Shown piece after piece: positions 265 through 40,451 of a stretch of DNA of 64,000 nt. The stretch spans positions 24,864,001 to 24,928,000 of the forward strand of contig CM119371.1 of NCBI GenBank assembly GCA_051294905.1, in the 5' to 3' direction. The notes under the pieces were generated by a model. It made no database searches. It had not been told where the DNA came from and worked only from the letters and a program-made list of their open reading frames with translations. The stretch is from Botryllus schlosseri. Its lineage: Eukaryota. The position numbers and the translations under genes are program-made. Every line of letters begins with the position of its first letter. Position 1 is the first letter of the stretch.

Positions 265-432
265 CTTTCTCATCTGTCGATATGGGATGGAACAATGACG
301 TCAGATGTCTATTGCGATATCGCGGCTATTATCAGTATCACGGGATGTTCGGCAGTATCTTTCGTGGACTGCAATTTGACAAAGAAGAAGATGAGATGTT
401 TCGCGGTAACCAGCAAAAGAAATCAATTATCT
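265..432 (+). CDS. LRR exon, type A (168 nt, phase 0-0; two 28-aa RI/NLR-like repeats)
   Basis: Acceptor ttttcattcAG and donor GTAAGT bound 56 open codons: LSHLSIWDGTMTSDVYCDIAAIISITGCSAVSFVDCNLTKKKMRCFAVTSKRNQLS. Paralog at 30042-30209 with related flanks. Confidence 0.85.
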
Positions 433-2284
433 GTAAGTTGTAAAGTGTGCTAAGACATTTGCGGTTTTATAGATAGTTGTTATTCCGAAGACAGGACAAG
501 AAAAGAGGCCAAGTATAAATCATACGAAGTCATCACGTTGATTTTAAATTCCCTTTGGACAATTGCAATATACCATGACGTCGCTATACCTATATTGATA
601 ACACCTGCCTGCAAAATAATCTGGTTTCGATTTTTGATTTTTTCAAGTGGTTTTCCCAATTTTTGGGTACTGAATCCGCATATGATCTTAAATTAGGTCT
701 AAAGCGTCAGGTGTTTTAGTAATCAAGATTAATTTAACTCACGAATTTTTGCATTTATCGCATTGATATTGTAAAAAGTAATTAATTAAACTTAGTCAAA
801 TTAGATTAGAGCATAGACCACCAGGACCTAATACTACTAAAATGTAGAGAGTACGATCGACATCGGCAACATTTGCAAGAAAGTGAGCGGTATCATAACA
901 TAGCTATGGAAATTAAACAGCGGCTCTCCAGCCTTTATACCTGTAGTAGTACAGTATTTACATTTGTCATATCATCCGTTAGAGAAATATGACATTAGGA
1001 TAGCCTTTATATACTACAGTATAGAACTTTCGATTTTGAAATGGACTGATGCAAAAAACCATCCACAGTTAAACGAAGGATTTCCAATTATACATACATA
1101 GACTACATACGCGCCACCACCTAATTCGGGGCCCTCGTAAAGTGCGTAAGACGTGTGTTGAGATCGAGTTTTAGATGTTTGACCTAAGGTGAAATGGTGC
1201 GGCTACCATTCAGAATATTCATGGCATAGACTATATAGGAAAAAAGAAGGCATTTGGATGATTGTAATTTCTGTCTTGTGAATGTCACAGGTTACAGACG
1301 TTGAAAAGCATTTTATTCCACACCTGTACTTGGATTCTGCATTGCGACCCAGCTCCTATTTCTGTTTTTACTCATCTTCCTCGAATCGATGAATTTTTTT
1401 CACTATTCCTCTTAGATTGATCACACGACGATCATAAAGATCTTAACTTTAATTGAACCCTGATGCATCAAATGAAATTCTTTGTTTCTTAATTTTATCG
1501 GGGTAAATCACCTGGATTTGCCAAATCACAATGCAGAGTTTAGGGCCCTGAGATTCTAAAAACAACAGCGTAATATTTATATTATATTTATTTCAGGGGA
1601 GAGTTTAACATATTGCCATGATATACCAATTCATCTCTTAAAAGAGTTGGTGGCATGAATACCATTCCGAGGAATGGACGGTATTTATATATAGCTCAAA
1701 ACGCATGTAAAATAGGGTTATCATCATACATGTTCCTTTTTCCAGGTTTTTGAAAATATCCTCCTAGGACGCCTAAACGTCTTCCATTTCGGAAGTTCGT
1801 GCTCCTTTACAGCTTTTAGAGCAGTAGTTCCCAATCGGTGGGGAGAACACCACTGATGGGAAATTCAATGATTTCTGCTGGAGAATAGACGCATTTGCTA
1901 AACATCATATACAGCAGGGGTTCTCAACTTCACATGTACAACGGGCCGCATTTTGCCCGCAAAAGAAGCTGCGGGCCGCAAAACATTATTGCCATGCATT
2001 TGTGAGCTTCTATCAAATTTAGGCTACTGGGGCCTATTAATTAGTCGTATACGGGCGTCTAGTCCATTTTCTTGCATTTCAAAGCATTATTGGTCACTTG
2101 GACAGCGTTCGTAAGTTTTCAATCGCTTTTTTTGCGAGAATATGTATTTTCCGGCGTCGCAAGTAAATCACCTCATGGAGCGTGCGTTGCATTCATTTCC
2201 AAGTCCGTATTTGTACCTTATTATTATTATTACACGCGGTATTACTGTGACGCTTATCGCCGTTTAGGCCTTGTGCGTCACAAC

Positions 2285-2794
2285 TAGGGCTGGGCACAGT
2301 GATTCGAGTACTCGAATCTGAATCGAACATTAAATTTGATGATTCGAGTCGAGTAGTAAAACAGGATTTTTTCGAGTACTGAAATTATACGCTCCTTGCA
2401 ACTGAAAGTTATTTTATTAACGTGGATTTTAGTTTTGATACTATTTTTCACTGAGGAAGCCTTGTTTGTTTGTTTAGCGGTGTCGCAGCATACGAGATAT
2501 GGTACAAAGCTACGAACGTTTCTGGAAATAACACATTTCCGAAGTCATGATCATCCCACAACATTGTCAAGAAATGCAATGAAATCGGTATGGTCGAAAA
2601 AATACCGAGGTATATTTATTGTGTGGGATAACACTCATTTTATCCTTTCTGGTGGCATAAAAGGTACATATTTGAACTTCGACATAGTGCATTCTGTTGT
2701 GACGTCATAATGAGTGATACTCGAATACTCGACTCGAAGCATAATGCGTGATTCAGAATCGAATCACTCAGGTACTCGATTTTGCCCAGCCCTA
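2285..2794. mobile_element. hAT MITE with (A)CTCGA subterminal repeats
   Basis: TIRs tagggctgggca / tgcccagcccta; perfect TSD gtcacaac. Confidence 0.9.
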
Positions 2795-2899
2795 GTCACA
2801 ACACAGGCACTTTTGTGTTACAACAGAGGCCATTATCTATTTAAGCTCTCAGTGAAATGAGAAGAAGTCTGGCGTTTCGGTATCATTTCAGAGCAAACC

Positions 2900-3385
2900 A
2901 ATCAACATATGCCTTTCCTTCCATGGCTGGAGCCCTACACCAATAGTTACATAAGTCAACTTTGTCAAGTTGATGTTTTTCGCTGGTCAGCTCCGCACGT
3001 TTGCCATGCCAGCATTCCTTCTGCAAATATGTCCACTCTGATAAAATGCACCAAGAAAATTAGCTATGCAATGTCTGTGAAGTCGGTGGATTCGTCCAAT
3101 GCTAGGCTAAAGTAGTATACGCGGTTTTCGATGGTCAGCTCCGCACGTTTGCCATGTCAGCATTCCTTCTGCAAATATGTCCACTCTGATAAAAAGCACC
3201 AAGAAAATTAGCTATGCAATGTCTGTGAAGTCGGTGGATTCGTCCAATGCTAGGCTAAAGTAGTATACGCGGCAACTTGTTTCAGAACATGCGATAAAAT
3301 GTCGACGGGCTACTCGTCTTGTCACGATTGAATCGGACAACTTTAGCTTCAAAATTTGTCGGGTAATGTTGTCGTTGCTGCTAAG
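2900..3385 (-). pseudogene. Buster/GTF2IRD2-like hAT transposase remnant
   Basis: Minus strand reads YFSLALDESTDFTDIA (first catalytic Asp motif) and, downstream, APAMEG (TDGAPAM motif region). Stops, frameshifts and a 148-bp tandem duplication (2977-3124 / 3125-3272) are present. Confidence 0.8.
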
Positions 3386-3556
3386 CAGTGTTACCTCTAA
3401 TTTTGACGAGTCTGCGCACACTCATCAACTTACTGCGCAGACCCTTGGACAACCGTGCGTAAAGACTATAAAAAGGTCCTCATTTCGGATTTCTGTGCGC
3501 ACAGATCGTGTCAGCACTGCGCATATGCGCACGTGCCCTGATTGGAGGAAACATTG
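3386..3556. mobile_element. Small hAT MITE (same family as 29502-29694)
   Basis: TIRs cagtgttacctc / gaggaaacattg; TSD ctgctaag / ctgcaaag. Confidence 0.75.
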
Positions 3557-14940: not shown

Positions 14941-14944
14941 CGCT

Positions 14945-16410: not shown

Positions 16411-16424
16411 AAACTCAGTTTGTT

Positions 16425-17828
16425 ACCGTTTGAGCGGTTTATATTCAAGTATGTACATAAAATATCAATAATTTCATAAAGAAATTCTTTCCCCTTCATC
16501 GGGTCATCTCATCTCAGCCGTCGCCGAATTTGGATCTGTAGTCGAGGCCGTACCCGCTCGGTTCATCTCATAGCATCGCATCGCATCGCATCGCATCGCT
16601 GGAGTCGATGTGAAATTGTAGTCGTGGTCGTAGTACGATCCGCCGGTATCTGGCGCTCTTTTGCGTTTGTGGATTGGGTTGGGTATTCGGTGCGGAGTGG
16701 TGGTGGAGGGGGTGGGCTAAATGGGTCGGGGAAGGGTTTAGGGGTGGGGTAGAGTGGGATTGGATGGGTGGTTTGTTTGAGTGGTTGGGATAGGTTGTGG
16801 GTGGATTGGTTGGGTTTTGTGGGTCGAGAAATACGATACGGTTTATCTCGTTTTATCGGTGCGTTCAGTGGGCTCGCTTAAATTTTTCGGTATAATTTAC
16901 TTCTTATATCGATCGTTAATGCGTTGGTCTAAATTTTGGGTGTATTCATTGTCGAGTGCATTTTTCCATTCCCACACAAGGGTTTCCACGTTCAGAAAGG
17001 CTTTTATTATGGTCGGAGCTTGCGGTCCGTCGTACACGTTTCGCATTATCTCGTCGGGTGTAGCGTCGATAGTCGTTTGCAGGTCGTTCTCGAGATCCTG
17101 TATTACAAGAGAGAACAGTATTTTGTAAGTTGCACATTCGGCGAAGGTATGGCGCAGAGTATCTTCTGCATTTTGGCAGAATTTGCATTTGTTTTTCAAG
17201 TAGGCTTCTTTTCTTCGTATCCAACCCGCGTTGGTTTTTCTGGAGCCTGTAAAGTAACTCTTAGTGTTATTGCAATACGAGATCTCCCGTTGCTTGTTGT
17301 CAATGTGATCTTTGATATTGGGTTGGTATAGCCATATCTGTTTCCAGTCCGACTTTCGGTTTCCTCCTTGCTGCGTCTTTTTTTTAACAAGGATCTGGTA
17401 CATTTCTTTCTGGCTTAGTTCTTGTAGCTCTTGTGATTGGCTTTGGATTACGTCGGAAATTTCCTTTTCCTTCCCCATTCCTTCTTCATGGTATTTCTGT
17501 GAGGGTAGAGGTTGTTGTATAAATTGCAATTTATATCTCTCACCTTCGTTGTCAAATTGTATATCGCTTCAGCGTGCCAGATATCAATCGGGCTCTCAAG
17601 TCGGCTTAGTTGTTGTAGCGTTTTTGCTCTCTTTGCGTGTGTGGCTGATTCAATATCTGGCATGTCGATCCCTCCTTCTGGCTTGGGTTTGATCAGTTGC
17701 ATTCTGCCTTTTTGCTCAAGTTTTTCAGGGCTCCGCAGTAGGCCGAACACGAGGCGTTCAAGGTGTTTGAGCTTGTCGCCTGGAACCTGCTTGTTGGTAT
17801 ATGTATACGTTATTTTGCTAATTATGTA
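16425..17828 (-). mobile_element. L1/Tx1-clade non-LTR retrotransposon 3' fragment (frameshifted)
   Basis: IISKITY; LIKPKPEGGIDMPD (post-RT L1 motif); zinc knuckle CKFCQNAEDTLRHTFAEC (Cx2Cx8Hx4C). A long low-complexity 3' region includes (GCGAT)n. The 3' boundary is approximate. Confidence 0.8.
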
Positions 17829-19115
17829 AGCCCTAAATTGATCATGGACAAAATGACAGAATTGTTCCAAACAATATGGGAGATTGAAAAATTACCCCAA
17901 TCATTCGGCCACAGCAAGCTAACTGCCATATGGAAGAACAAAGGAAGCAGAACCGATCCATCGACATATCGCGCTTTTCAAGTTGGAAGCGTATTCTGCA
18001 AACTGTTAGTACAAATAATCATATCAAGAATAGAAGAATGGTACAACCAGCAAATTCTCGAATTCCAATGTGGTTTTAGAAAAAGGAAGGGAACCACCGA
18101 CTGCATATATGTCACGAAGCAGTCTCAAATCATCGCTGAAAAAACTGATAAACAAACATATGCCTTGCTTGTCGATCTCTCCTCTGCTTTCGACCACGTC
18201 AACAGAACCTGGCTAATTCAGTCGCTACGAAATCGAATCGATGAGCTTGCCTCTCTTTATCGATGTACAACAACCGAACTGTAAAGCCACCCTAACCTAA
18301 CTTTTCCCACAAAATCTGGAGTTCGACAGGGCGGACCCGAATCCCCTATCCTCTTCAATCTTTATATGGACTATGCCGTGAGAGTCTTCCTACACAGATC
18401 GAAACTAGCCGATATCGCTTTCAGCCAGTATCACTTTCGCACACCGGACTATGCACGAGAAAATAAAAGGGACAAGAACTACCAAGGAACCGCTATCAAC
18501 ATGGGCTCAGGCTATGCAGACGATCTGGAATTCTTTTTTAAAGACCAAACTTCTCTTCAGGAAGGTCTAAAACTACTATCAGAAGTTCTTACTGAGTTTG
18601 GATTACAAATTAATGAGTCGAAAACAAAAACTATGATATTTAACCACAATGAAGAACTGACTCACCCGACTTCAATCTGCTCTCTGCATAATCATGATAT
18701 TGAAAACGTGAAAACTTTCAAATACCTTGGTAGCATGATTCACTATAACGAAACGAATGTGGGGATATCCGAAATCAACAATAGGGGCAGCTCGGCTCAT
18801 GCAGCTTTCCAAACCTATAAATACCTGCTTCGAAACTTCAGAATTTGGATTGGTACAAGAATAAAATTTTTGAATGCCTTTGTGCGAAGTCGACTCACAT
18901 ATGGCTGCAGTGTATGGTCTCTTTCGGAAAATAAAAGAAGCGTCCTGGATGTCTGTTACAGACAATTTTTGCGAAAAATGGTACACGGAGGCTACACTCG
19001 AAGGGGAACCGATCACGCATTCAAAATTAGCAATCAGAATCTTCATCAGAATCTGTCGCACTGAAGACCTTTCAGCATTCATTGATCACCAACATAAATT
19101 ACATATCATGTTTTG
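17823..19115 (+). pseudogene. Non-LTR retrotransposon reverse transcriptase (RTE/CR1-like), degraded
   Basis: QCGFR, LVDLSSAFDHVNR, GVRQGGPESPILFNLYMD, YADD, GLQINESKTKTM and FKYLGS lie in one frame with a single TAA at 18282-18284; frameshift near 19030. Confidence 0.9.
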
Positions 19116-22100: not shown

Positions 22101-22134
22101 CAATCGGTAATGGAAAAGACTGCTTATTTTGAAG

Positions 22135-22302
22135 CTCTCAACTCTGTGTATAATCGATGCCCAAATGCCTGCTGAAAGTTTTCGAGAAATCGCAATCACA
22201 CTCCAGACCACCTGCTGCAAAGAGATTCATTTCGAAAACTGCGAATTGACGAGTCGGAAGCTTTCTGAATTCTACACTGGATGTAAAGACAACGATCTAT
22301 CT
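22135..22302 (+). CDS. LRR exon, type B (168 nt, phase 0-0)
   Basis: ttattttgaAG acceptor, GTAAGT donor; LSTLCIIDAQMPAESFREIAITLQTTCCKEIHFENCELTSRKLSEFYTGCKDNDLS. Confidence 0.85.
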
Positions 22303-25297: not shown

Positions 25298-25680
25298 TAG
25301 GGTTACCATACGTCCTCTTTTAAAAGGATTTGTCCTCTTTTTCAACAAATTGAAATTGTCCTCAGAGGACGCCTAAATGTCCTCTTTTTAAAATTTGTCC
25401 TTTTTTTCTACAAAAATTATTAAAATACCATCAAACACTCGACCCCGACGCAGCGAACGGGTATAACGAAGGTCTGGTCGAAGTGTTGCCTTGTTTTAAT
25501 AAACAGCACAGACTTATCGTATTAAAGCGGGTAATTCGGGATTCGGGTCGCGTCAAAGTGATGAGTTTTTTAATTTTGTATTTAGTCAACACTTGTACTA
25601 TTTTGGTCGAAAACCTTTAAAATTACCCATTTTCTTTTCCGGTATTTCGAGATTTCCGAGTTTTTAAAAAGTGTCCCATT
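25298..25680. mobile_element. Truncated copy of the TAGGGTTACCATA MITE family
   Basis: Starts tagggttaccatacgtcctctttt, the reverse complement of the end of 12781-13225. Confidence 0.75.
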
Positions 25681-26010
25681 TCTCTGCTACGACTTCTTGG
25701 CACATGCAGCGCAAAGTGGCTACAGATCCATTATAATTTTTGCACGTGTTGTTGGTATTACTATAGCATGCATGGAACACTCCGATCGATCATTAACTAT
25801 TCCTGCGCAAAATTTTAAAGAAACTACTACCGCATCAGTTTCGCCAATAACGCTGATCACATGCGGTGACAGATGACATAAATTAACCAGTAATATATAC
25901 AACTACTATTAGTTTTGGCAAAACATAAACAAGTTTACTTTGAGTAAATTTCCCGATTTAAGCGTCTATAAGAAAATCAAGGCGACTCATATGAAAAGTA
26001 GTGTGGGATC

Positions 26011-26965: not shown

Positions 26966-27528
26966 GTGGGGTCTGAACATCTGTTGGGAAATTTGGTATA
27001 GGCGCGTCGAATCGACATTGATTTTCGATATTGCTACTGTAGTCGACCATCTTGCTGTGAGTGAATTCGCCTTGTAACCACGTTGTCACGTATATATTTT
27101 TAATGGTAATGGCGTGAGAGAACATGGTGAAGGGGTGCATGCGTTCGTCACAACAGCTTTTAGGGATCCAAAATACGAAAACATTGAAGAAACGTCGTAG
27201 AGTTTCATTAAATACCAGAATTTCACTGCTATTTCCAGCTACGAATTAGACAGCTCCAGGCGTAAATATAGTAAGACAATGTATACTGGATTGACTATTA
27301 TCCAATTCGACCCAATTGTTTCCAAAAATCCCAAGTGCATTTTTGTGATCAAATTGCTCAGCCTGATAATTAAATCATAAACGTAACTGTAAACGCTGTC
27401 AGATTGCTATGTATATTGGTAATTTATGTTTCGCGACCTTTCTAAAATGAGCAAGTATGGAAATAGTAATCTACTCTACGGAGTTGTTGTAAAGTAATCG
27501 GTAATTGTGAAGAACGCGTATTTTGTAG

Positions 27529-27696
27529 ATCTCAAATCTGATCATTATCGATGCCAAAATGTCTGCTGAAAGTTTTCGTGAAATCGCAATCACACTCAAG
27601 ACCACATGTTGCAAAAAGATACATTTCTCAAACTGTGAATTGACGGCACGCAAGCTCTCGGAATTCATCAATGGATGTAAAGAGAACCATCTATCT
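27529..27696 (+). CDS. LRR exon, type B variant (168 nt, phase 0-0)
   Basis: tattttgtAG acceptor, GTAAGT donor; ISNLIIIDAKMSAESFREIAITLKTTCCKKIHFSNCELTARKLSEFINGCKENHLS. Absent from the ORF track. Confidence 0.88.
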
Positions 27697-29501
27697 GTAA
27701 GTTGGAATAATGTTCCTGAAAGGGGAATTATTTAGATTGGGTGTGAAAATAAGGGCGATCGTGATCTTTCGGTATAGATTGCGAGAACCAACCGAAAGCC
27801 ACAAAACTATAGTGATTGTAGGTCTTCTTGGGTAAAAGAGCAATATAGACTGAAATTTGCCATACTCGTGGGTTTGGTAGACCATAGGATGACTGCTGTA
27901 TCTGTAAATTAGACAGCGAATCTCCACCTGGTCAGGATCGGAAAAATGAATCGAAGCTGGTTCGATATATCACAGAGGTATTTAAATATGTGCTTGGCCT
28001 TAAATGGCATGCAAATTCCTTCTCAATATGCATCAACCAATGATCCAGTCTTGTCAATACATGATATGTATAATTTACTGTATTAAAATCTGGTAGAATC
28101 GTAATTTGAGGATTTGTATTATAAAGGCTAGCAATAACTGCAGAGTCTGGCAAAGAAGTGTCATCTAGTGATAGTTGCCAGAAAAGAAAGTATGAACAGG
28201 AAAATAGAGTGGTAACTAGAAACGTTAATACGAAACCAAACAACAAAACTTTGTCACGAGTTACCCAACGGAGACGGATTTGCGGAATAATAAAATTACC
28301 GGGCTGAAACCTTCCTTACATTCTAATCATAACTTAAAGGAACTACTCCGCACTGCTTTGTCGTCATTTCAGTCCGATTTCATACACCTTGCAGCCCAGG
28401 TGGAGACGAACCAAATCACCACTCACTATTGAACTAAATTCGGTAGCCTAGATTTCATTTGACGAAATATATCCGTATTTCATAATTTTTGTGTTCGGGC
28501 TATTTTAACGCTAAAATTATTGATTTGTGGCTCACGTATGAAGCAGATCTTTCCACCCTGATATAGGTATATATATATTCGTATAATATTATACGCTGTG
28601 AAGGAACGGAGTTCAGGGGAGGATATGTTCGTCACAACAATTTTTAACCGTGACCAAATTGAAAAGGATTGAATCTACATTGGAAAGTCCCTTAAAAACA
28701 GGAATTTTCCCATTATTTTTTTGCTATAATTTCGGCAGATCAATATGGATTACCGTTCTTGAACTTACGTGTCTAATAACTAACCCATTTACTAGTCAAA
28801 ACGATCTTATGATATCAGATTGCCTTGTTCGAGCACTGTGGCGTTTGTCGACCACATTGAAACTCTTTTTAATGTTAGCCAATACTCAGTCAACCAAATG
28901 CTGAAATTTTGTCACTTCGATTTGTCGACAAAATGACTGTACACAATGAATAAGTGAGCGACTCTGGACTCCTCCAATGCTTTTGATCACTACAACCAAA
29001 TCCCACAGGTCAGGAACAGTTATATATTTCTGATATTGGATTGGACGGATAAAATCCACATTCTACGTTACTCTTGCTGTCGACGCAAGTAGCCCTAGAC
29101 AGAAAAAAACATCTAGTGTTCTCAAACTTGGCATTTACTTTACTTTGATTTTGATACCAATCTTTAAGTTAATTTGATGTACAGGAAACTTACAGATATG
29201 AATAATAGTTTTTGCCAATTTGTTTACATATTTGGTATTGGAATTCTTATATCATAGCAAATAGAATTATTTTTTGCTGTCGACGGCAAATATCCCTGCA
29301 CTTAAAAAGCATCTACTATTTAAAGCATAATAGTTACAATACTATTATCTTGGTATCAATTCGCATTGTGCTACAGACAAAGGTGGTCAAAGTAGGAGTA
29401 GAAACGCAAAAATCAAGCACAAAAGAATAAAGTCCGATATTGGGCAATTCAGTATCGTATCGGAATAGCCATATCCACCAACCACCATAGCACATTATAA
29501 A

Positions 29502-29694
29502 CAATGTCCCCTCTAAGCTGCGTACGTGCGCAAATGCGCAGTGCTGACATGGACCCTGCGCCCAGAAAATCTAAGTTGCGCACAAAAAATCCGAAGTGAC
29601 GACCTTTTTTCAGTCGTTACACCCTTTTGTCCATGGGTCTGCGCAGTGACTTGGGGATTGTGCGCGGACTCGTTAAAAATTAGAGGGAACATTG
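29502..29694. mobile_element. Small hAT MITE
   Basis: TIRs caatgtcccctctaa / ttagagggaacattg; degraded TSD attataaa / attacata. Confidence 0.75.
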
Positions 29695-30041
29695 ATTACA
29701 TAGCATACTAAGTGCATCTGTATCCAATGCGAAGAGAATTGTTTCGGAGCAGATCATCACCGATCTACCGTCTCAAATTTGCTAGTCTAGATAGTAATGC
29801 ATTCCCACGTCAAGGAAATGGTTTTATACGGAGCATTGAGTCGCTAAGACACGCTCCATAATCTTTCAACCATAGAAATTCACCGATTGAATATTTTTCG
29901 CTATATTTTCGTTCGATGATTTGCATGGACTCTCTCGATTATTTTAGGTGACTACGCGAACTGAATGTCAGACATTCCAGCGAGCAATTATATCATGGTC
30001 TTGACTAATCACTACTGACAAGTTGCATCATTATCATTCAG

Positions 30042-30209
30042 CTTGGCAAGCTGTCGATATATGATGGAACGATGACGTCAGATATCTACGGTAACGTTGC
30101 GGGTATTATCCGCATCACGGGATGTTCGACGATATTATTTGGAGAATGCGATTTGACGAAACAAAAGTTGCAAAGTTTCACCAGAACTGGCAGGAATAAT
30201 AAAATATCA
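30042..30209 (+). CDS. LRR exon, type A (168 nt, phase 0-0)
   Basis: ttatcattcAG acceptor, GTAAGT donor; LGKLSIYDGTMTSDIYGNVAGIIRITGCSTILFGECDLTKQKLQSFTRTGRNNKIS. Absent from the ORF track. Confidence 0.88.
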
Positions 30210-30352
30210 GTAAGTTGCAAATTTTGCTGATTGATTTGTTTTGATATAAATGACCTGTATTATGAAAACAAGTACCATGAAGTAAATCGACCTTAAACTC
30301 TACACCGTAATTATTAATCAACCGGATATGGTGATTATATCTTATTTCCTAG

Positions 30353-30520
30353 CTCTCGAAGCTTCACATAAGAGATGTCAAAATGCCCGCTGAATGTTAC
30401 CGCGAAATCGCAACTACACTCAAGTCCATCAGTTGCAAAGAGATCGTGTTCGGACGCTGTGAATTGACGAGTCTGAAGCTTTCTGAATTCTACAATGGAT
30501 GTAAAGACAACGATCTATCT
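30353..30520 (+). CDS. LRR exon, type B variant (168 nt, phase 0-0)
   Basis: cttatttcctAG acceptor after a 143-nt intron, GTAAGT donor; LSKLHIRDVKMPAECYREIATTLKSISCKEIVFGRCELTSLKLSEFYNGCKDNDLS. Confidence 0.88.
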
Positions 30521-30665
30521 GTAAGTTTAGTTATTGTACAGAAAACGTGCATTGCTTGTATCACGAGTGCTCGCTAAATTTTCGTTCGGTTTCTTATTCT
30601 TACCCGCATATCACGATATAATACTAATCCCAAAATATACTGCGTTTGACGAGTGATATTGACAG

Positions 30666-31955
30666 CATGGCCGTAACTGCACTTCGTCAGGCTCCCCTAA
30701 AACGTTGGTCTTTCCCCCCCCCCCCATATGGTGATAAACCGAACTTCTGGGGGGATTCGCCCCCCTCTCCCGACCCCTAAGGCTATACGCTGTTTACCGC
30801 TACTTATCTGCTCCATTGGGTGTCCGTTTGGTGAGCCAGATTTTATTCCCTTAACCCGCCAAGCGCGAGAAATTTCTATAGTTCATTACTGAATCTCTCC
30901 GCTCACGCAATCTGATTTACCGGTAAAGCTGAGTTAGGTGTGCTTGAAAAGGCAGGACCCCTCAATAATAATTAAACATTACCGGGTGTATACCCGTTGG
31001 CAGGAACGAAACAGCACTTCGTCAGCCCCTATAAAAATTGAGTCTTTGGCTCAATGGGCTGATGAACTGACCCCCGCTCCATCGCGTTTTTCGCTTTTGC
31101 CACGGAATTACAGCTGTACCCTGATGTGAGTTAGCGCGATGCGCGAAAATTTTCGATAATTCGTGATAAAATCGGTCAATACGATCGGGAATTGCATATA
31201 TATTGCTATCAATTTCTTGTCCTCTCTACTCACGCAATCAAATTTACCGGTAGGGCTGAGTGAGGTGTCTTTGAAACTGTAAAGCCCGTAAATAATAATT
31301 GAACATATTTGGCGGGCGGACCCGTCGGTATGACTTCGTTACATGATGCTATTTCATGACCTCCGGTCTGCTATATCAAAAAATATAGAATCGCCCAAAC
31401 GTACTAAACTGAAGGACCATGCGATTTCAGATTGGTACTTCTTCACTGGCATATAATTTTTTCCTGCGGGGTGGTATTTGTCTTGTGACGTACAGATTGG
31501 CAAGACAGGAGCATTCGGAGCCAGTCATTTAGGCACCTATATGGACAATTAAACCTATATGCATTTTATAGATATAACGAAGTTTCCGGTCAGCATAAGG
31601 GCAGTCCTTTACGGCCAAAGTTTTCTCGCTGCCGATCGTTATGTCACACTTCTGGGAGTCGCATGTTTCATGGCCTAAAACTTTATATATCTTGGTGCGT
31701 CGTAGCGCGGTTATGGCCAACGCCGATATGCCCTTTTCTATAAATCTTGCGTATCTTTTCGTGGGGTGGGAGTACCCAATATTCAAGATATTTGGCGACT
31801 TGAAATCGCGGCGAGCGCGAAAACCTTTTGAAAAAGTTGCATAAATTTTCAAAAAAGACTCTATAATTTATGCCAATTCACGAAATAATTTTGAGTCCTC
31901 TTCGAGCTCGCCCCCCCCCTAATTGTGGATTCGGGGTGCGGCTGTTACGGCCCTG
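30666..31955. mobile_element. hAT non-autonomous element
   Basis: TIRs catggccgtaac / gttacggccctg; TSD attgacag / actgacag. Empty paralogous site aatattgacagtacttatt near 22435. Confidence 0.85.
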
Positions 31956-33204
31956 ACTGACAGTACTTATTCCGTGGATTGGCAGATCAAGGTGACCTCT
32001 GTGCTTGAAAAATAGTCCGAAATCCTTCTAAATATTGAGCACACAACACAAAATTGACAAAATGAATTACCGAATAACTCGTGGACTATTGTAATGCTTT
32101 TGATCGCTGCAAGCTAATCCCGCATGTTAGAAACAGTTGGAAAATTCCGTTGACTGTATTGCAACGCACTGATAAGAATGGCGATGATAGTTGGGGGTAG
32201 TCCAGTAAAAGAGACGGGTAAGTTAAAATAAAATGAGTATAGAGAGCTATACAAATTTGTTGTGGATACGCGGCCCACGATAATATAGCTTGTACACTAC
32301 ATCGTTGGATTTCCTAGATTACAATGCGATACGATCATATTTTCATTGAAAAAGTTAAAGACGACAAGAACTGCGGGATGTAAGAAGAATAAATCAGCAA
32401 AACCGTAGACATTATGCTTATTTATTTCTCGACCTTTTTTGACACTGGAAGGGACAGATAATCAGAAGTGGAATGATTTCGCGCTCTCTACCTCGGTATC
32501 CCTGTAAAGAAACATTTCTACTATTCTGAAACTTGACTTACATATCAGTTTTCATTGTATGACTGCCTCCTGAAATTCCCAACTATGACGTACCGTTTGA
32601 ACCGTGTGGTGTTTCATACATTTTCCGCACAATTGAATCCAAGGAAGTTTTGCGAATAACATCGTAAGCTACGGCCGAGATTCGCAAAAATATGGGACTG
32701 CAATATTTTTTTTTTCATTACGAGCTCGGAAGATGTTGATGAAAATATAGTTTACTAGAGATGTTGCAAACATTTATTTACGTTGGTGTCCGGCATGGGA
32801 ACCGTGAGCTACATGTCCACAGACCAATATTTGCGGTTTTCCCCTGTGAAAGTTTTGTGTGAAGTACCAGTATTTTCCAATAATCTTGGGAGTAATCGTA
32901 AACATTCTTGAGATAGTAACTGCACCGCGATGACAGCAAAGGAAGTTTAACCCAAACCTAACAGGTAAATTGCGACTTAATAAATATTTAACAATTTCGA
33001 TAAAGTTGCTTCATATCATACCATAATAATTTCTAATATTAAAATAACTCGCTTTCGGTACTTCTACGTACTTGGACTATGCCTATATATTCCTCTAGAA
33101 TTAAATGTTAGCTCTGTGTCATAACGAAGAACCATTGTATTTGGGCATGTTGTGAAAAATAATTATTCGGCTCTCTGGCTAAGCTTGGGTAACATACTCG
33201 AAGC

Positions 33205-36200
33205 CAGGGCTCACCATCCCGCGGCCCGCGAGGTCATATTTTTTGGCCCGCGACCTGCTTTGAATTTCGGAAGAAAGCTTGGTAAAGCATTTTGGAATGC
33301 TGAAATTGATTTCAGTTTAAACAAATTGTTGTTGCTGTTCAAAGTAAGCCATTCTCTTGTTTCCAATATCACTAGCTGATACATCTTCGGCGATGATAAA
33401 ATCAATCCATGGAGGATGAATTTGATGATACGAATGGGCATACTGCCTTGTTGTGCAATGGTCGCCACTGCCAAGACCAAGACGCGTGGAAAACGACCAA
33501 GCTTTACGAGGGAAATAATTTTCCAGCAAGAACCATTTCTAGCTAACCCCAATATCGATTCTTTAGTCTAGTAGTGGGCAATCTGCGGCAGTAGAAGGAA
33601 AATGATGCGGCCGCCGACGCTTAATTCAATTAGGATGTGTTGGCGACCGTCAATATGCAAATTTAATTTACGTATTGAATCCCTAATTAATTAGAGGTTT
33701 AAATTTTTCTTGAAATTTGCATCGCGCTACGCGCGGTTCGAAGCGAGTTGATTTTCGATTTTAATATAGTAGTGTCATTTGTAATCTGAGCCTCACAGTA
33801 CAGATGCGAACACCAAAGGAAAAGGATGCGAACCATAAAGAAATACCAATTTGTACCGGTGAATCTGTGCACATGGGCTGAGATAGGATAAATATTTCAT
33901 AATAATATTTGAAACCATAATAATATTCAATGGCGAAATTGACCCATGAATACCAAAAATTTTTTGCGCAGGGCGCGACTGCAGTACGATTCCCCGGGCC
34001 TGTTCACAACTTGACTACCCACGGTTTCGGTGCGCAGTGTAAGCCGATATGAGTAAATAGATTAGACCGGAGTTCAACGGCAAAGGGCATGGGCAGTTAT
34101 ACGCGGGTATTTCGCCTCCAGTTAGTGCATTACGACTATGCACTGGAACGCGGCCGTAGGCTATAAGCATAAGCGCCGAGTTACGGGGTACCGGGGTGGC
34201 GCAGCCACCCCATGACTCATTTATGGGGTGGCGGCCACCCCATACAAAATGCTTGAACACCCTTGGTCTGCGACACGACATCAGCCCAACGACGCAAACC
34301 AGATCATCAGCGATGTCAATAAGCGAGTCCGTGTTATCGCGCAAATGCCAACTATTTACTAGGGATGGTGTGAACTTGAGGTTCACGTTCGCGTTCTGTA
34401 TGTGAACCTCGGAAATTTAGAGGTTCGCGTTCACAACAGAACCTTGGTAGGTTCTGCACTGTGAACCTTTTTCATATATTACAATTTTCACTTCATTATG
34501 ACATTTTCGGTTCGAATTTATTGCATTTCAACTGCGGGCCACTCTATGCATGACTCTAGCAGCATAAAAAACAATAACACAAAACGAGCATGCACCTTGA
34601 CAATCTCAGAGATTCTACTTGCTTTATGACTAAAGTTTGCTTGAAATATCAAGCTTTCCGTTTGTGAAATTTAGTGACTCTCTGCTGTGAGCTTGAACCG
34701 CAATCACACAAGATCACGAGCGACATGCAGTACACGTAGTCAGCGAATGATGCTTATTCTACCAATCAATGAGATTGATATCGTTTTTTGATGTAACAAA
34801 TCTAGCAGGCGTACGGGGTCAATCCTCACTTCATATGTTTACTGTATCATTAAAACCAAATCCGTGCGATTGAGGTGTTGGCTACAGCTGTATAACTTGT
34901 GACGTAGCCTAATATCGGTAGCAAGTATAGAAATCTGTTTTACACTCTGCCCAATATCAATGTAGCAATACTCAGATGCCGAATACATTGTCCGGTCTGG
35001 CTAAGACCGTTGAGGCGTAAGCTTATATTCCCTGGCAATTCCTCGTCGAAATTGTTGGCAAAGCGACGGATGATATTGATTTTATGGGAGTATTAAATCA
35101 TTTGATTGCCTCGGTTGATACATTTAGCGACGTTTCAAATGCCAATATGTACTTCAGCATTGTGTCATTATGTGGCCCGGGTCGTCGCTAGGTATCGTGT
35201 ACATTAATATAGGCTATCACTTCATTGAAATGTAGGGTTGTAATTAGCAATATGACGTCACGTGACGTCATAAGGCTCACGTTCGCGTTCACACAGAACC
35301 TTTCAAAAAGGTTCGCGTTCACACGAACCTGAACCTTTCAGAGGTGCACACCATCCCTACTATTTACAATTAACCAATACGCGCGCGTGAATAGAGACGA
35401 CGAACTCGTGCTAAAACGCCCCAATAGATTGTAATCCGTGTTTAGTAATGATAATCAGACATTCGAAGCGACCTCGTTTATGGTCGATTTCGACGAGTCT
35501 GCGGCCTGCGCTGAGAAACACCATCTTCTCTCTCGACCAGACGAGCGAATTCACGTTCTCCTTCCAATTAAATTATATTAGCGCGCATATTCGTTTACAA
35601 AATAATTCTTGACTTAATGTGGTGATAGTCGCTTTAATTGGACCGCGAAATAGGACGGTGTGTTTGTGTATGCCTGCGACTTCAAAGTCATTTCTGTTCA
35701 AAGTGCGCATATTCATTATTCTGACAAACCAACTTTTATCGGGAAAAGCAGCAATGCAGCTCAAACGTCGTTATAATGAGTAAAACAATTGTCGCGCTGT
35801 CAGATTAGGATCCCCAATGTGCCGTGCGCAAGTTGAGGAATTACTGATTAGATGCGCGCTTTCTCGTTTGCTACCATCTGTAGGCTACAAATTCTTGTCT
35901 GCTTTATATACTAAAATTCCCGCGATGTTACTTGTCAGTGTTTTATTTGTTATTGATACTGCGCATTGTGCAATGCACGGCGTTGAATCACGTTGTCAAG
36001 TATTGATGCAACACAAGACTATCTGTGGCGCAAATTCTGAATTTATTCGATTAGTTTGAACGGGAACCTTCTATGTTCCAACGAACCTCATTGATGGACG
36101 GACTGTATTGAGCGCAACCACATCGCGGATTTCAAACTACTGGGATTTGTATTTCTATTGATATGGTCGCGGCATGCGCCCATATTGCCCTTGTTGCAAT

Positions 36201-37499
36201 AACACCTGTATAATTAAAATAGCACCGTTTCACGATCAAATTCGACTGGCTGATCGGGGCCTACGTTGGCTGTAGGCCCCGGGCTGATATTAACCAGTGC
36301 GTGCCGGCTGCCGGTATTAAAACCCTACCTACGTGCGTAGTCAGGGAGTTTCTCATTTAAAACTAGAAATCGCGTCCTTTTGAAATGCCAATCCACTAAT
36401 TCGCGTTATCGATGCTGCGTACTGCAAATTAGCGAGAATCATTTGTATGTGAAATGGGTCATTGACATCTGATTTGCACCATCGTCGCGTTTTTGATTTA
36501 GCGCGTCCGCGTGCAGGCTAGGCCTGATATCGTTACTACAGCAGGACTGGCGCATGCGATAACACCGCTAGCCTTAAATTGTTACTTAAACTGCTACATG
36601 CCTCGCATGATTTGCATGCTATCTCTACTTATGCGATTGTTGCTCCAGCAAGACCGAAAGCGTGAAATTGAAAAACTTTGAATCTGCGCAATTGGCCATG
36701 AACATTGAACATACTCGAACGAACGGACGTAATTGATTAGCGCTATTGCTAGAACGTCAGAAGATGTGTGTTAAGGCTTAAGGCCGAGTTATCAGAAGAT
36801 ACGACAGGCCTGAATCACCTGAAATCGGTGCCATTACAGAGCAGATTCCACAGCAGATTTCAATCACATCAATTTGTGTAATCGTTCGTAGACAGCGAGG
36901 TTGGGTATTCAATTTTTCGCGTGCAGGCGTGCGTGTTGGTAAATGTTTGATATTGAAGCAAGATCGAAGAATCGCCGATTGACCGCTAGACTCGCTGGCA
37001 AGCTTATGCGTACTTATACGCGCAAATCCTATCCATGTATTATGGGCATTTACGCATGTATTTAACCCTAATAAATTGATGCTAGCTCGGTAGGTTTGAA
37101 CAATTTTCAAACCTCTTCCCTTTTCAATCTCGCCACCCATGTAAAAATAAAAGTCGGCGCCTATGGCTATAAGTATAATCGAAATGCGGCCGTGAAAAGC
37201 AAAAATTTAGCCCATCAATGTCTTATAGTTGCTGAAGAGTGTTGTCAGGTATCGTGCGCAGCTCACAGTTCAAAATAGAAGGAAATTGATGATCTTGATC
37301 TTTTTTTGTTGTATTTGCTCTTCTTCGATAAAATATCATTTCCTATGCCCGTCAACCATCTTATAGAGCACAGCGTTATGTACTGACGTAGGGTTATCCA
37401 AGTGGGGTTGTTAAACTGCATTGCCTATTTTTATCAATATATTGAAGTCATGCGGCCCGCGGGCCTCTGCAAATTTCGAAAAGTGGCCCATGACCCTTG
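33205..37499. mobile_element. 4.3-kb composite hAT-bounded insertion
   Basis: Starts cagggctc..gcggcccgcg and ends gcggcccgcggg..gacccttg; TSD ctcgaagc / ctctaagc. Empty site ctcaaagc at 21282-21289. Confidence 0.8.
34360..35359. mobile_element. 1-kb hAT-like element with GTGAAC repeats
   Basis: TIRs tagggatggtgtg / cacaccatcccta; perfect TSD ctatttac. Confidence 0.92.
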
Positions 37500-38367
37500 C
37501 TCTAAGCATTCATTCAATACTTGCGATAAATTCTTAGCACTTGTGGCGCAAAATCACTATGGTTCCATTACGTACGTTCCATCACGTACGAGTTGTTGGT
37601 GTTACTATATCATGTGATAAAACACTCCGTTCGATCAATAACTATTCCTGCGCTAAATTGTAACGACACCACTACCACAGCAACTCCGGCTATGACGCTG
37701 ATCACGCGAGTTGACATATGATATAAATTCAACAGTAATATATGCAACTATACCATTACTTTTGTCAAATATACATCAGTTTATTTTGGAGTAATTTCCC
37801 GATCGCGCGGCTACGAAAACGAAGGTGACTCATCTTGAAAGTAGTGTTGTGATGTGCGCGTATGTTGGCAGTTTTGGTACGCTCATCGAATCGACTTTTA
37901 TCTGCGACATTGCTACATCAGTAGGCTATTTTGCTGCAAGCTGTCAATTATATAGATATTTAAATAAATATGTTTATGGCGCGATAAAACAGGGTGAAGG
38001 GGTGCGTGCGTTCGTCACAACAGCTTTTTGGGATCTCTAAATGCAAAAATATTTTTAAAATATCGCATTTATATTAGAGATTCAGAATTTCGTTAAACAC
38101 CGGAATGTCACTGCTATTTCCAGCTACGAATTAGGCAGGTGGAGGCGCAAATGTAATAAGACACTTGATTGACTATTTCCTATTTGACTCAATTGCTCAA
38201 TATGATAAGTAAAACGTAAACGAAAATCGTAATAGCCAGGACATCGCTTCGTGTATTGGTGATTCCTGATTCGAAACCTTTCCTAAAAAAATGAGTAAAT
38301 AAATTATAATCCACTTCATAGATAATTTCAAAGCAATCGGTAATGGAAAAGAATGCTTATTTTTTAG

Positions 38368-38535
38368 CTCTTAAATCTGTGTATAATCGATCCCCAAATG
38401 CCTGCTGAAAGTTATCGTGAAATCGCAATCACACTGAAGACCACATGCTGCAAACAGATAGCGTTGGAAAACTGCGAATTGACGAGTCGGAAGCTTTTTG
38501 AATTCTACACTGGATGTAAAGACAACGATCTATCT
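38368..38535 (+). CDS. LRR exon, type B (168 nt, phase 0-0)
   Basis: cttattttttAG acceptor, GTAAGT donor; LLNLCIIDPQMPAESYREIAITLKTTCCKQIALENCELTSRKLFEFYTGCKDNDLS. Confidence 0.87.
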
Positions 38536-39107
38536 GTAAGTTTATTTAGTGTACAGAAGACGTGCATTGCTCTTATAACGAGTGAGTACACAGCACAAAA
38601 TTGGCTAATGAATTAGTGACCGACCCGTAGAATCTTGTAATGCTTGTGATCGCTGCAAGTAAAGCCCGCCTGTGGGGAACAATTGAAAAAAGCAGTTCAC
38701 ATCATTACAGCACACTAATAAAAATTGCAATGATAGTTAGGGGTATCCCGGCACAAGAGACGGGTAGGTCAAAATGAAGTTAATATCGAGGGCTATGCAA
38801 ATCAGTTCTGGATACGCCGCCATCGATAATACAGCTTGTACATTACATCGTTGGATTTCCTATAATAAATAGGAAACAATCCTAATTTCATTAAAAAGGT
38901 GTGAGAAGAATTAATCAGCAGATTCGTAGACATGATGCCTTTATCGAATGGACTTTGATCTGCGAAATTGCTACAACATTCGGTGATTTCTGCAAGGAAA
39001 TTCACCTCCTAACCTCATTGACATTTATTACATATATATATATTGCAATACATATGGTTATGGCGTGGTCGCTGTTCTTTGTGGTATTGATGGTGTTTCG
39101 ACTATAC

Positions 39108-39409
39108 CAGTGGTTTTCAACCTTTTTTTAGACACGCCCCTCTTTTTGATGGTGAAAAATTTCGCGCCCCCCCCCCTTATCGTCATATCACAAAATCCAA
39201 CCGGGATGCTAGCAACCCCAACAGATTGTTTGATGGCATGGAAGGTTATGGGTGTTGATAAGAGAATTAAAAATATGTAATGAGGTCTGTATATAGAGAA
39301 ACACACGTGAACAGGAGGCAAATCGCGCCAAGCGCGAAAATTTTTTCCAGTTGACCGCTTCTTCACGCCCCCTTCACTGCTTTCACGCCCCACAGGTTGC
39401 GAACCACTG
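39108..39409. mobile_element. ~300-bp hAT MITE
   Basis: TIRs cagtggttttcaacc / ggttgcgaaccactg; perfect TSD gactatac. Confidence 0.92.
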
Positions 39410-39772
39410 GACTATACTATGGTCATTTACACCTGACCGATATTCTTTAATTTTGATTCCGTCTCTGCCGACTTGTAGCACGGCCCACTTTTGGGCTTTC
39501 TATAAGACACCGCTTACGAGTGAGATAACAGGGTGAATGAATGCATGCGTTCGTCACAGCAGCTTTTAGGGATCGCCAAATTCAAAAATATTTAAAAATA
39601 ATTGCATGTATATCAGAGAATCAATATTTCATTGAATACCGGAATTTTACTGCTATTTCCTACGAATGGGGCAGATCGAGGCGCAAATATAGCATTATAC
39701 CAGATTGACTAGTCTCCTATTTGATTCATTCGCCTACGAAAGCTCCTCGTGCATATTAGACAATCTGATAAG

Positions 39773-40390
39773 TAGGGCGATTATTTTGACATGTCAAAAT
39801 TTTGTAAAAATAGTATCGTTAGGTGAAAATTTGTCAAAATTGTTCACAACGTCAAATTTCTTTTGACGTCTGCATCTCGTTTGTTTAGTTAATTTTGCAC
39901 TGTCGGTGAACTTATCATTTGATATTTTACAGCTTGTAGCCTAGTTCATAGGCCTACCGTTGGAAACGGCCAATTGTCTTCTCATTGAATCATAAACGGT
40001 CAAACAATACAAATAGGTAGACATGGTGTTATCATAGTGTCCTATACGGTGTCGACACAGGCAAATCTCACACCTCAGTGTAATTGTATCACGTCACAAT
40101 TTCCATTTGGCTACAGGCAATTTGACGGTCATTTTTGACCGCCCTGTCGAGCACTAAATTTGGTAAAACGGGTATCAATCGCAAGCTGACTTTGCACTGA
40201 TTACGGAAATATAAATTTTATTCCGCCCGTGGCCCTGGAACTCCCACAATCAGCCTCGAATTTTTCATTGTTATGGAGATTGGCATTGGGACGCCACAAT
40301 GCTGCCTGGCTCTATTTCTCTTGAGCTACTCTCTATTTTCGCCAGACAGCATTGTTGCGTCCCAATGCCAATCTCACTAACAATGAAAAA
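39773..40390. mobile_element. Unclassified interspersed element ending in a foldback
   Basis: 40030-40205 matches 11500-11675; 39775-40010 matches 63050-63300 inverted; 40240-40390 matches 14133-14279. Confidence 0.7.
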
Positions 40391-40451
40391 TGAATTCTTC
40401 ATCGGATGTACTCATGAATTCTTCATTGGATGTAAAGACAACCATATATCT
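40391..40451 (+). pseudogene. Broken LRR exon (3' remnant, paralog of 27529-27696)
   Basis: Reads EFFIGCKDNHIS; donor GTAAGT is replaced by ATAACT; 24-bp internal duplication; the 5' part is replaced by a repeat; the downstream intron matches 27697 onward. Confidence 0.8.

Follow-up and report, generated by a model that had tools for sequence, protein, structure and literature searches.

Leucine-rich repeat exons of a putative, very long NACHT-LRR gene in a tandem cluster of the tunicate Botryllus schlosseri

Exons that encode two leucine-rich repeats (LRRs) and keep the reading frame are the described norm in NLRs, according to the available text of Hoss et al. (2019, PMC6642158). In NLRP3, as described there, every LRR exon is 171 bp long and encodes 28 + 29 amino acids, and one of these exons, exon 5, is skipped in the human gene. 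Symmetric repeat exons are also known from the LRR/TPR candidate receptors of brown algae, associated with NB-ARC or ROCO, where, according to the accessible parts of PMC3341825 and PMC11378527, they are suggested to provide the raw material for shuffling. Among tunicate proteins, Styela clava LOC120326569 (XP_039248824.1) combines NACHT, NOD2_WH and 32 repeat stretches in 2508 aa, and LOC120336943 (XP_077976001.1) consists of Death, NACHT, NOD2_WH and 11 stretches.

The locus presented here lies in a stretch of 64,000 nucleotides of the Botryllus schlosseri genome, referred to as the window; positions outside it are given in window coordinates, with minus for upstream and plus for downstream. 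The window harbors six LRR exons on the plus strand, at 265..432, 22135..22302, 27529..27696, 30042..30209, 30353..30520 and 38368..38535. The preliminary description of the exons as intact, symmetric and phase 0 is accurate: each follows a pyrimidine-rich tract and an AG acceptor, measures exactly 168 nt and ends at a GTAAGT donor, with phase 0-0 throughout and frame 0 free of stops in all six. Both other frames contain several stops in five of the six exons, the exception being exon 265, in which frame 2 is open too. Each exon encodes 56 aa that form two ribonuclease-inhibitor (RI)-type LRRs of 27 + 29 residues, and starts two residues ahead of a strand. Two RI-type LRRs per exon, a border fixed at the strand and strict preservation of the frame are shared with mammalian NLRPs as covered in the available text of PMC6642158. 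Unlike the NLRP3 exons of that text, the Botryllus exons measure 168 rather than 171 nt, fall into two alternating subtypes and are separated by introns of up to 20-50 kb.

Subtype A comprises exons 265 and 30042 (family HMM E=2.2e-24 and 3.4e-23), which are 70% identical in DNA sequence, and subtype B comprises the four remaining exons, which are 75-91% identical to one another. Exon 22135 (B1; E=5e-35) clusters in the exon tree with B1 exons of other genes in the cluster, and exon 38368, likewise matched by the family HMM, is a second B1 copy and the sister of C1:24243693 (support 99/92). Exon 27529 (B2; E=1.1e-32) is the sister of C1:24229770, and exon 30353 (E=1.6e-33) belongs to the B3 clade (support 100/96). 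Judged by sequence comparison, the six exons are homologous and their resemblance is not due to chance; a co-duplicated flank of ~55 nt upstream and ~75 nt downstream surrounds them. Exon 30042 is the partner of exon 30353 across a 143-nt intron, and the same A-then-B3 pairing, with ~310 nt from start to start, is present in the paralogous loci with a B3-type exon. The exons are therefore not equivalent cassettes, as first described, and constitute two subtypes in a recurring module of an A-B3 pair with its 143-nt intron, followed by B1 and then by B2.

Exon 265 is solitary, as a B partner is absent within 3 kb downstream, its similarity to other A loci stops at about 450-606, and 24 kb separate it from the preceding LRR exon. 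The reported dead copy is indeed dead: this plus-strand remnant of a B2'-type exon, at about 40391..40451, retains only the last ~12 codons (EFFIGCKDNHIS) and a donor that reads ATAACT, and its 5' portion is swapped for unrelated sequence. The introns are riddled with insertions, as had been claimed. Two plus-strand ORFs (17742-18281 and 18285-19061) match Pfam RVT_1 (E=8e-13 and 5e-15), and a weak zf-RVT match on the minus strand (16900-17568) falls below the cut-off (E=0.0086). Exons 265 and 22135 are separated by 21.7 kb of intron, which contains this retroelement debris (16900..19061), and many interspersed repeats also occur in the flanks.

A search of 1.84 billion representative proteins with a family profile of 38 exon translations gave only 52 matches. 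The named matches are 'uncharacterized proteins' of Styela clava. The top match, P0001 (2508 aa, E=2e-188), contains 32 repeat stretches and is followed by P0002; P0004 contains 11 stretches. Four of the 16 matches scanned with Pfam carry NACHT (P0001, P0004, P0012 and P0034), and P0004 also carries Death. The window exons align in register with the repeats of the Styela clava relatives at 27-42% identity per exon, and therefore represent a diverged subfamily from a different species. Both share the 56-residue double-LRR unit with the register L-x-x-L-x-I/L-x-D … C-x-L-T-x-x-K-L, as well as the order of NACHT, helical domains, LRRs and a cap with a G-W motif, which is collinear on the Botryllus locus.

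The repeat units fit a 27-29-residue L-x-x-L-x-L-x-x-(N/C)-x-L pattern, each with a strand and then a helix, and the conserved residues of the exon family are L1, L4, I6 and M11 in addition to C28, I31, F33, C36, L38 and T39. Pfam LRR models match none of the six single exons, even at E<=10, and none of P0001-P0005 at E<=0.001; LRR_6 is present in four weaker profile matches (P0014, P0022, P0029 and P0032). Against PDB sequences, the best match of the exon profile is the designed RI-type LRR 4r5d (E=0.009). Structure prediction, suggested earlier as a check on joined exons and carried out here on a single one, yields the LRR-type succession: AlphaFold2 with the family alignment places a strand at residues 3-7, a helix at 13-25, a strand at 30-34 and a helix at 40-52 of exon 22135 (pLDDT 90.2). 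The model of the relative P0003 (pLDDT 92.7, pTM 0.87) is a horseshoe of regular strand/helix units of ~28 residues. Foldseek searches with this P0003 model, rather than with joined window exons, returned NLRP2, ribonuclease inhibitor, NLRP3, NLRP9 and NLRP14 as top matches, with probability 1.00 for the first three, E down to 1e-9 and 159 chains at E<=0.001; the predicted fold matches these mammalian NLRPs. The resemblance to ribonuclease inhibitor extends to the ~28-residue strand/helix units (Foldseek E about 5e-9 to 1e-5, TM about 0.46-0.51), whereas sequence identity is 10-13%, the setting is NACHT rather than a stand-alone inhibitor, and Pfam LRR_6 misses the exons. The earlier assignment of the exons to RI-like LRR pairs in a protein of NLR type is supported by profile matches to NACHT-bearing proteins and by the predicted folds.

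Neither a NACHT exon nor a terminal exon had been seen in the preliminary description. This holds within the window, where searches for a start exon, a terminal exon or a cap with a stop were negative, but not for its surroundings: the NACHT exon lies at -45.8 kb and the terminal exon at +98.9 kb. The plus-strand NACHT exon, at -45,999..-44,755 (match C1:24818202-24819218), has an open frame of 412 aa (-45,967..-44,732) that scores 47.1 bits with Pfam NACHT (cut-off 26.7) and is 33% identical to the NACHT region of Styela clava P0001. The putative gene continues on the same strand with two exons for helical domains, near -41.8 and -38.8 kb, and four LRR exons at -35.5, -32.7, -29.1 and -24.2 kb, the first of which was assigned on weak scores (E=0.04 with the family HMM, and E=0.40). 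Downstream of the window, three plus-strand LRR exons at +90.0, +90.3 and +92.3 kb precede a C-terminal cap exon (+98,915..+99,097, plus strand), which is phase 0, open and stop-bearing. The NACHT and cap exons, both on the strand of the window exons, bracket 13 intact LRR exons, all with AG/GT sites and open frames; the seven outside the window are also frame-preserving, with 168 nt and phase 0-0. Over the 264 kb examined, a single NACHT exon was found, along with just two terminal-cap exons: one at -82.5 kb, which closes the upstream gene, and one at +98.9 kb. On the interval -46..-24 kb, the Styela clava NLRs and the spliced ORF P0019 align in collinear order.

This arrangement suggests that the interval from NACHT to cap is one NLR gene of ~145 kb. 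The six window exons are likely to be internal LRR exons, probably numbers 5-10 in a series of 13, and to belong to a single, very long gene for a NACHT-LRR (NLR-type) innate-immune receptor in a 1.5-Mb tandem cluster of paralogous NLR genes on contig C1. All of the exons would then belong to one transcription unit, from which a protein would be made that may sense ligands via its LRR face. Against a single 145-kb unit stands the need for repeat-filled introns of 20-50 kb, and one intron of the proposed unit spans a gap in the assembly as well as perfect palindromes (49-56 kb). That the window exons belong instead to one or several short LRR-only genes, with no link to the NACHT exon that lies 46 kb upstream, is quite improbable. 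Styela clava P0003 (445 aa) and P0005 (266 aa) are predicted LRR-only proteins of the same repeat type with no NACHT, and the 24-kb distance upstream of exon 265 would accommodate such a division. These two proteins may, however, be fragmentary gene models, all of the window exons are internal, with phase 0 and both splice sites, and caps in the 264 kb are confined to the two positions given above.

The proposed search of adjacent sequence for NACHT and death-fold exons was successful for the former alone. Across the region from -60 to -30 kb, Pfam searches of 80 plus-strand ORFs of >=55 aa detected nothing except NACHT, with no Death or CARD, and tblastn with the Death region of P0004 gave no match upstream of the NACHT exon; the locus differs in this respect from LOC120336943. 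Effector domains at the N terminus (Death, CARD, PYD or TIR), none of which was found in these searches, are not obligatory, as P0001 is also without one.

The family comprises at least 148 six-frame copies (E<=0.001) in the 495-Mb genome, a lower bound with 150 of 316 candidates scored. At least 53 copies are present on C1 at 23.46-24.96 Mb, all on the plus strand, together with at least eight NACHT exons. In the exon tree, exons cluster by array position across paralogous genes. The dead ATAACT donor of the remnant at 40391 is also present in the otherwise full-length paralogous exon C1:24247199, so this donor was dead before the arrays separated, and the position-wise grouping and the shared dead donor indicate that the arrays were inherited en bloc. 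This does not support interchangeable cassettes, and it sets the locus apart from the brown-algal candidates, as characterized in the accessible parts of PMC3341825 and PMC11378527, which are of another lineage and repeat class: here, exon order is kept between paralogues and not shuffled. With phase 0-0 exons, the gain, loss or death of an exon would keep the reading frame, and therefore the array could expand as a module of four exons (A-B3, B1, B2) was duplicated, and individual exons could drop out.

Diversification by duplication, which had been suggested from the outset, is supported by these copy numbers and by the pattern of selection. B exons overall have a dN/dS of 0.38 (406 pairs). 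At 10 predicted strand-face x positions dN/dS is 1.09 as against 0.30 elsewhere, and none of 200 random 10-column sets equalled the observed pN; the contrast is partly circular because the positions were picked from the LRR motif after the alignment had been seen. Diversity would be germ-line in origin, arising by duplication of genes and exon modules and then by amino-acid change, mostly at predicted concave, ligand-facing strand positions.

The preliminary description also envisaged that alternative splicing could leave out or recombine the symmetric exons, with one locus producing many LRR solenoids. Equal length and phase 0-0 would leave any exon subset in frame, the variation concentrated at strand-face positions is compatible with such a use, and human NLRP3 skips one exon of this kind (available text of PMC6642158). 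Frame-preserving two-LRR exons are, however, normal for NLRs according to the same text and do not imply combinatorial use, so the layout alone is no evidence of a special diversifying mechanism. Position-specific exon identity, moreover, is conserved across paralogous genes, as constitutive exons would show. Four bulk RNA-seq runs with the same species label, from unchallenged material (39 million reads, 5.85 Gb), were mapped to five of the six window exons. Bins with these five exons had a depth of 0-0.13, and none of the joints listed lies at an exon border. Between 97 and 99% of mapped reads fit only partly and therefore derive from repeats; these partial reads fall in introns only. Among the matches listed, no RNA dataset contains the A-B3 pair. 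Neither skipping as in human NLRP3 exon 5 (available text of PMC6642158) nor constitutive splicing was thus seen in the four runs, which gave practically no exon reads. Four isoforms are predicted for Styela clava LOC120336943: in the one pair aligned (1650 and 1337 aa), the difference is an alternative 3' end rather than cassette skipping, and the other two, known by length alone (1651 and 1650 aa), deviate by 0-1 residue. Combinatorial splicing is unsupported, and we regard the cassette reading as highly improbable.

The same RNA data are relevant to the possibility, doubtful but to be taken seriously, that the array is a transcriptionally dead, decaying segmental duplicate of an NLR gene whose exons are intact only through recent duplication. 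A near-total lack of reads and the absence of splice joints would be expected of such a relic, as would the dead exon at 40391, the missing B partner of exon 265 and 20-50-kb introns full of retroelement debris. The nearest paralogue, a sister array at C1 24.22-24.25 Mb, lies after a NACHT exon whose frame is interrupted by two stops. Exon 38368 differs from its sister C1:24243693 by eight non-synonymous and no synonymous changes; dN/dS is near or above 1 in the closest exon pairs and 0.62 in close pairs. Decay is nevertheless difficult to reconcile with exons that all keep 168 nt, frame, AG and GTAAGT, with the open NACHT and terminal exons, or with the dN/dS of 0.30 outside the strand face. 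In 14 close pairs, exons are 91-96% identical with zero indels, while the 200-nt flanks are 71-93% identical with 0-19 indels each. Silence of immune receptors is common in bulk tissue from animals that have not been challenged.

A bolder variant is a germ-line 'construction kit', in which modules of two to four exons would repeatedly be duplicated, lost and exchanged among at least eight clustered genes and immune cells would choose exon subsets by alternative splicing. It is compatible with the strand-face dN/dS of about 1 and with the lack of signal in RNA samples that were unchallenged bulk material, and we consider it improbable. If true, a few very long genes would produce LRR surfaces specific to each individual and cell, in the invertebrates most closely related to vertebrates.

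The layout of the locus is ordinary for NACHT-LRR receptors, and no new mechanism of diversification emerges from the locus. Its significance is that of a lineage-restricted, poorly annotated NLR subfamily, with tunicate proteins as the nearest named relatives. The terms 'NLR', 'NOD-like' and 'NACHT' do not occur in a review of tunicate immunity (PMC5465252) or in the S. clava genome paper (PMC7540406), and the NLR expansion may therefore be undescribed. Introns swollen by transposable elements can hide such genes from annotation. As a clean natural example, the array shows how a receptor built from symmetric two-LRR exons can acquire, drop or inactivate repeats while its reading frame is kept.

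The window carries six exons, named here by their start positions (265, 22135, 27529, 30042, 30353, and 38368), which were each inspected at their coordinates. All are exactly 168 nt long, follow a pyrimidine-rich tract ending in an AG acceptor, and precede the donor GTAAGT. Three-frame translation leaves frame 0 open in every exon, with several stops in both alternative frames of five of the six; exon 265 is additionally open in frame 2. A further copy at 40391-40451 is dead, retaining the last dozen codons next to the donor ATAACT. The six stop-free AG/GTAAGT exons and the dead copy of the preliminary description are thus all recovered at their positions. The exons form two subtypes, A (265 and 30042; 70% DNA identity) and B (22135, 27529, 30353, and 38368; 75-91%), which share just 30-36% protein identity with each other. 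In B exons, ~55 nt of upstream and ~75 nt of downstream sequence are co-duplicated as repeat family D1. The mutual homology of the six exons is confirmed, and the pattern is not due to chance.

Pfam searches with the six single exons return no LRR model, just unrelated sub-threshold matches. A word-indexed search of exon 22135 against proteins of 99-2000 aa gives three candidates, none at E<=0.001; among Botryllus schlosseri proteins in that collection, annotated or assembled, no multi-exon one is close. A family profile of 38 exon translations, searched with HMMER against 1.84 billion representative proteins, matches 52 proteins at E<=0.001, five of them at E<=1e-30, and the top matches are 'uncharacterized proteins' of Styela clava. 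The S. clava repeats align with the window exons over nearly their full length at 27-42% identity. The product of S. clava LOC120326569 (P0001; 2508 aa) contains 32 repeat stretches with Pfam NACHT and NOD2_WH, and that of LOC120336943 (P0004) contains 11 repeat stretches with Pfam Death, NACHT, and NOD2_WH. Pfam NACHT is also present in the matches P0012 and P0034, making four of the 16 profile matches scanned with Pfam, and LRR_6 is detected in four weaker matches.

An AlphaFold2 model of exon 22135 based on the family alignment (pLDDT 90.2) places strands at residues 3-7 and 30-34 and helices at 13-25 and 40-52, so that each exon is predicted to encode two complete LRRs. As a stand-in for the joined window exons, the eight-repeat, LRR-only relative P0003 was modeled (pLDDT 92.7, pTM 0.87), giving a regular strand/helix period of ~28 residues. 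Foldseek with this model retrieves 159 chains at E<=0.001, including NLRP2, ribonuclease inhibitor (RI), NLRP3, NLRP9, and NLRP14, with E-values down to 1e-9; against PDB sequences, the exon profile scores best with an RI-type LRR of designed origin (E=0.009). As homology and predicted fold agree, the assignment of the exons to the RI-like LRRs of an NLR is supported, without a contribution from Pfam LRR models. The feature is real and this part of the earlier interpretation is right: NACHT-bearing S. clava homologues bear it out, and structure prediction, proposed as a check on the joined exons, yields an LRR fold for exon 22135 by itself and for P0003.

A scan of 264 kb (the window and 100 kb on each side) with the family HMM detects LRR exons exclusively on the + strand and with AG/GT borders. 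Relative to the window start, an upstream gene has LRR exons at -96,270, -88,623, and -84,707; four more precede the window at -35,506 (weak), -32,672, -29,065, and -24,217, and three lie past it at 89,960, 90,273, and 92,300. With the NACHT region of P0001 as query, eight NACHT exons are found at 23.45-24.82 Mb of the contig CM119371.1 (C1), all on the + strand; a genome scan with Pfam NACHT, in which 94 of 224 candidates were scored, lists none in this cluster. The only NACHT exon within the 264 kb, at C1:24,818,202-24,819,218 on the + strand, lies 45.8 kb upstream of the window, has an open frame of 412 aa, and scores 47.1 bits with Pfam NACHT against a cut-off of 26.7. The preliminary description had pointed to adjacent sequence as the place to seek NACHT or death-fold exons; the former is there, and the sequence examined upstream of it shows neither a Death nor a CARD exon.

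From this NACHT exon towards the window, the S. clava NLRs are collinear with segments at -46.0, -41.8, -38.8, -35.5, -32.7, -29.1, and -24.2 kb. P0019, an unnamed 379-aa ORF on a 2.5-kb assembled contig that is probably a spliced transcript of another species, joins exons of this same chain, those that follow NACHT and the first ones with LRRs. At the other end, tblastn with the P0001 C-terminus gives no match in the examined sequence; a stop-bearing C-terminal cap exon with a phase-0 acceptor was located at 98,915-99,097 (+ strand) through the unnamed ORF P0006. The 264 kb contain two caps only, at +98.9 kb and at -82.5 kb, the latter 2.1 kb past the upstream gene's last LRR exon. The most economical reading infers one transcription unit, a gene of ~145 kb comprising NACHT, helical exons, 13 double-LRR exons (~728 aa), and the cap, in which the six window exons would be LRR exons 5-10.

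The putative 50-kb intron of this gene, between 40.4 and 90 kb, contains two inverted repeats whose arms are 100% identical: 49206-50360 pairs with 50404-51558, and 51659-53251 pairs with 54185-55777. Both adjoin a 100-N gap (51559-51658), and the palindromes of 49206-55777 look either artefactual, arising in assembly, or like a genuine palindromic satellite. Tandem arrays are built of 92-nt units at 43059-43334, of ~200-nt units at 45951-47119, and of 41-nt units in a pair of inverted blocks at 52042-52460 and 54976-55386. Downstream of the window, large inverted duplications of 99-99.95% identity occupy +64 to +86 kb (e.g. 71648-77850 with 85009-78807); they represent a palindrome of recent origin or else sequence duplicated in assembly.

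The family extends well beyond the window. A six-frame search of the assembly (495.5 Mb, 219 contigs) with exon 22135 scored 150 of 316 candidates and therefore gives a minimum: 148 matches reach E<=0.001, all of them free of internal stops. By our count, at least 53 of the matches lie at C1 23.46-24.96 Mb, every one on the + strand, and further clusters occur on the contigs C12, C7, C3, C15, and C11, with compact paralogues at C15:13.24-13.27 Mb and C7:28.55-28.59 Mb. Among the 30 best loci, 28 are full 168-nt exons preceded by AG, with a GT donor in 27 (mostly GTAAGT) and ATAACT in one; the other two are offset partial matches, one being window exon 38368. In a recurring module, an A exon begins ~310 nt before a B3-type exon, and a B1 and then a B2 exon follow this pair after some kilobases. 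On the - strand of C7:28565679-28581822, LRR-exon matches with identical scores recur every ~6.6 kb, which suggests that a compact member of the family was duplicated in tandem very recently.

The inheritance of the array is reflected in a maximum-likelihood tree of 41 exon copies, in which A and B are split with support of 100/100 and the B exons cluster according to position, in the clades B1, B2, B2', and B3, and not according to gene. The sister of exon 38368 is C1:24,243,693 (support 99/92). The order B1-B2-A-B3-B1-dead B2' is identical in the window and in a paralogous array at C1 24.22-24.25 Mb, and the ATAACT donor of the dead remnant recurs in the otherwise intact exon C1:24,247,199. 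Since order and donor are common to both arrays, the module duplications and the donor death are older than the gene duplication, and the arrays were copied as blocks, not as swapped cassettes. A mosaic ancestry of adjacent exons, with nearest relatives in different genes, was considered and set aside because 168-nt trees resolve poorly and the array order matches that at C1 24.22-24.25 Mb as a block. Exon 265 stands without the B partner found beside other A exons, and no B-exon remnant was found downstream of it; the frame survives this loss because every exon is phase 0-0. Elsewhere in the cluster, the paralogous NACHT exon C1:24164994-24166091 has one TGA and one TAG in frame, and the array 3' of it has the same dead-donor exon as the window; its gene is a probable pseudogene.

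LRR receptors typically combine a conserved scaffold with a changeable ligand face. Over 29 B exons (406 pairs), dN/dS is 0.38; it is 0.62 in 104 close B pairs and reaches or exceeds 1 in some of the closest. Fourteen close pairs have exons of 91-96% identity, free of indels, and 200-nt flanks of 71-93% identity that carry 0-19 indels. Codons were partitioned into two sets, ten x positions that the LRR motif has within the strands or directly behind them versus the rest, the positions being fixed after the alignment was seen. On this partition, dN/dS is 1.09 at the ten positions versus 0.30 elsewhere in B exons, and 0.70 versus 0.38 in A exons. Of 200 sets of 10 columns drawn at random, none reaches the observed pN. 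In this pattern the scaffold is conserved, and change on the face presumed to contact ligands is free or diversifying.

Four bulk RNA-seq runs (X6, X9, X10, and X12; two studies with the same species label, unchallenged tissue per labels) were mapped to window positions 21,000-40,999, using 39 million reads (5.85 Gb; 6-13% of each run). Depth is 0-0.13 in the bins of the five exons in this interval, and no joint is listed at any exon border. Given this depth and the lack of joints, the five exons are either not expressed in those samples or expressed at a very low level. Between 97 and 99% of mapped reads fit just partly; these carry fixed differences, pile on the intronic repeats 23668-26999, 34340-35673, and 39009-40342, and stem from transcription of related repeats at other places in the genome. 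For the A-B3 pair, the sequencing-run index search lists no RNA run, which is not evidence either way. The main rival reading, that the same array is a silent, decaying relic, has this near-zero depth and the dead copy on its side; against it stand the intact exons beside indel-bearing flanks, the open NACHT and cap exons, and the dN/dS of 0.30 outside the ten strand-face positions, and it is considered unlikely.

The 168-nt layout has a counterpart in known NLRs. According to Hoss et al. [quoted passage not shown] The window exons share the two-LRR design at 168 nt (27 and 29 aa); their layout is a rule of the receptor class and no sign of a special mechanism. Peculiar to the locus are a lineage-restricted repeat sequence (the 52 profile matches), two alternating exon subtypes, a megabase cluster, and extreme intron sizes. 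In S. clava, LOC120336943 has four predicted isoforms (1651, 1650, 1650, and 1337 aa); the 1650- and 1337-aa forms, the only pair aligned, are identical to residue 1322 and then diverge, so that they differ by an alternative 3' end and not by skipped cassettes. Combinatorial splicing of interchangeable cassettes, as proposed in the preliminary description, is unsupported in the window, given the block-wise inheritance and the class-wide exon layout; at the near-zero depth of the four runs, neither constitutive nor alternative joints are seen. The terms 'NLR', 'NOD-like', and 'NACHT' are absent from a 2017 review of tunicate immunity (PMC5465252) and from the S. clava genome paper (PMC7540406). 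A full-text literature search found no description of the subfamily or of tunicate 168-nt LRR exons, which is weak evidence of absence as most subscription journals lie outside its scope.

The six exons probably belong to the interior of the LRR region of a very long NACHT-LRR gene. This gene would lie in an NLR cluster arranged in tandem, and its germ-line diversification would proceed by duplication and by substitution on the strand face. Across the genome, the Pfam NACHT cut-off is exceeded by at least 94 ORFs, with 94 of 224 candidates scored, mostly as single open frames of 400-620 aa spread over many contigs. This NLR repertoire is large, considering that the closest named relatives of the genome's proteins are from tunicates.
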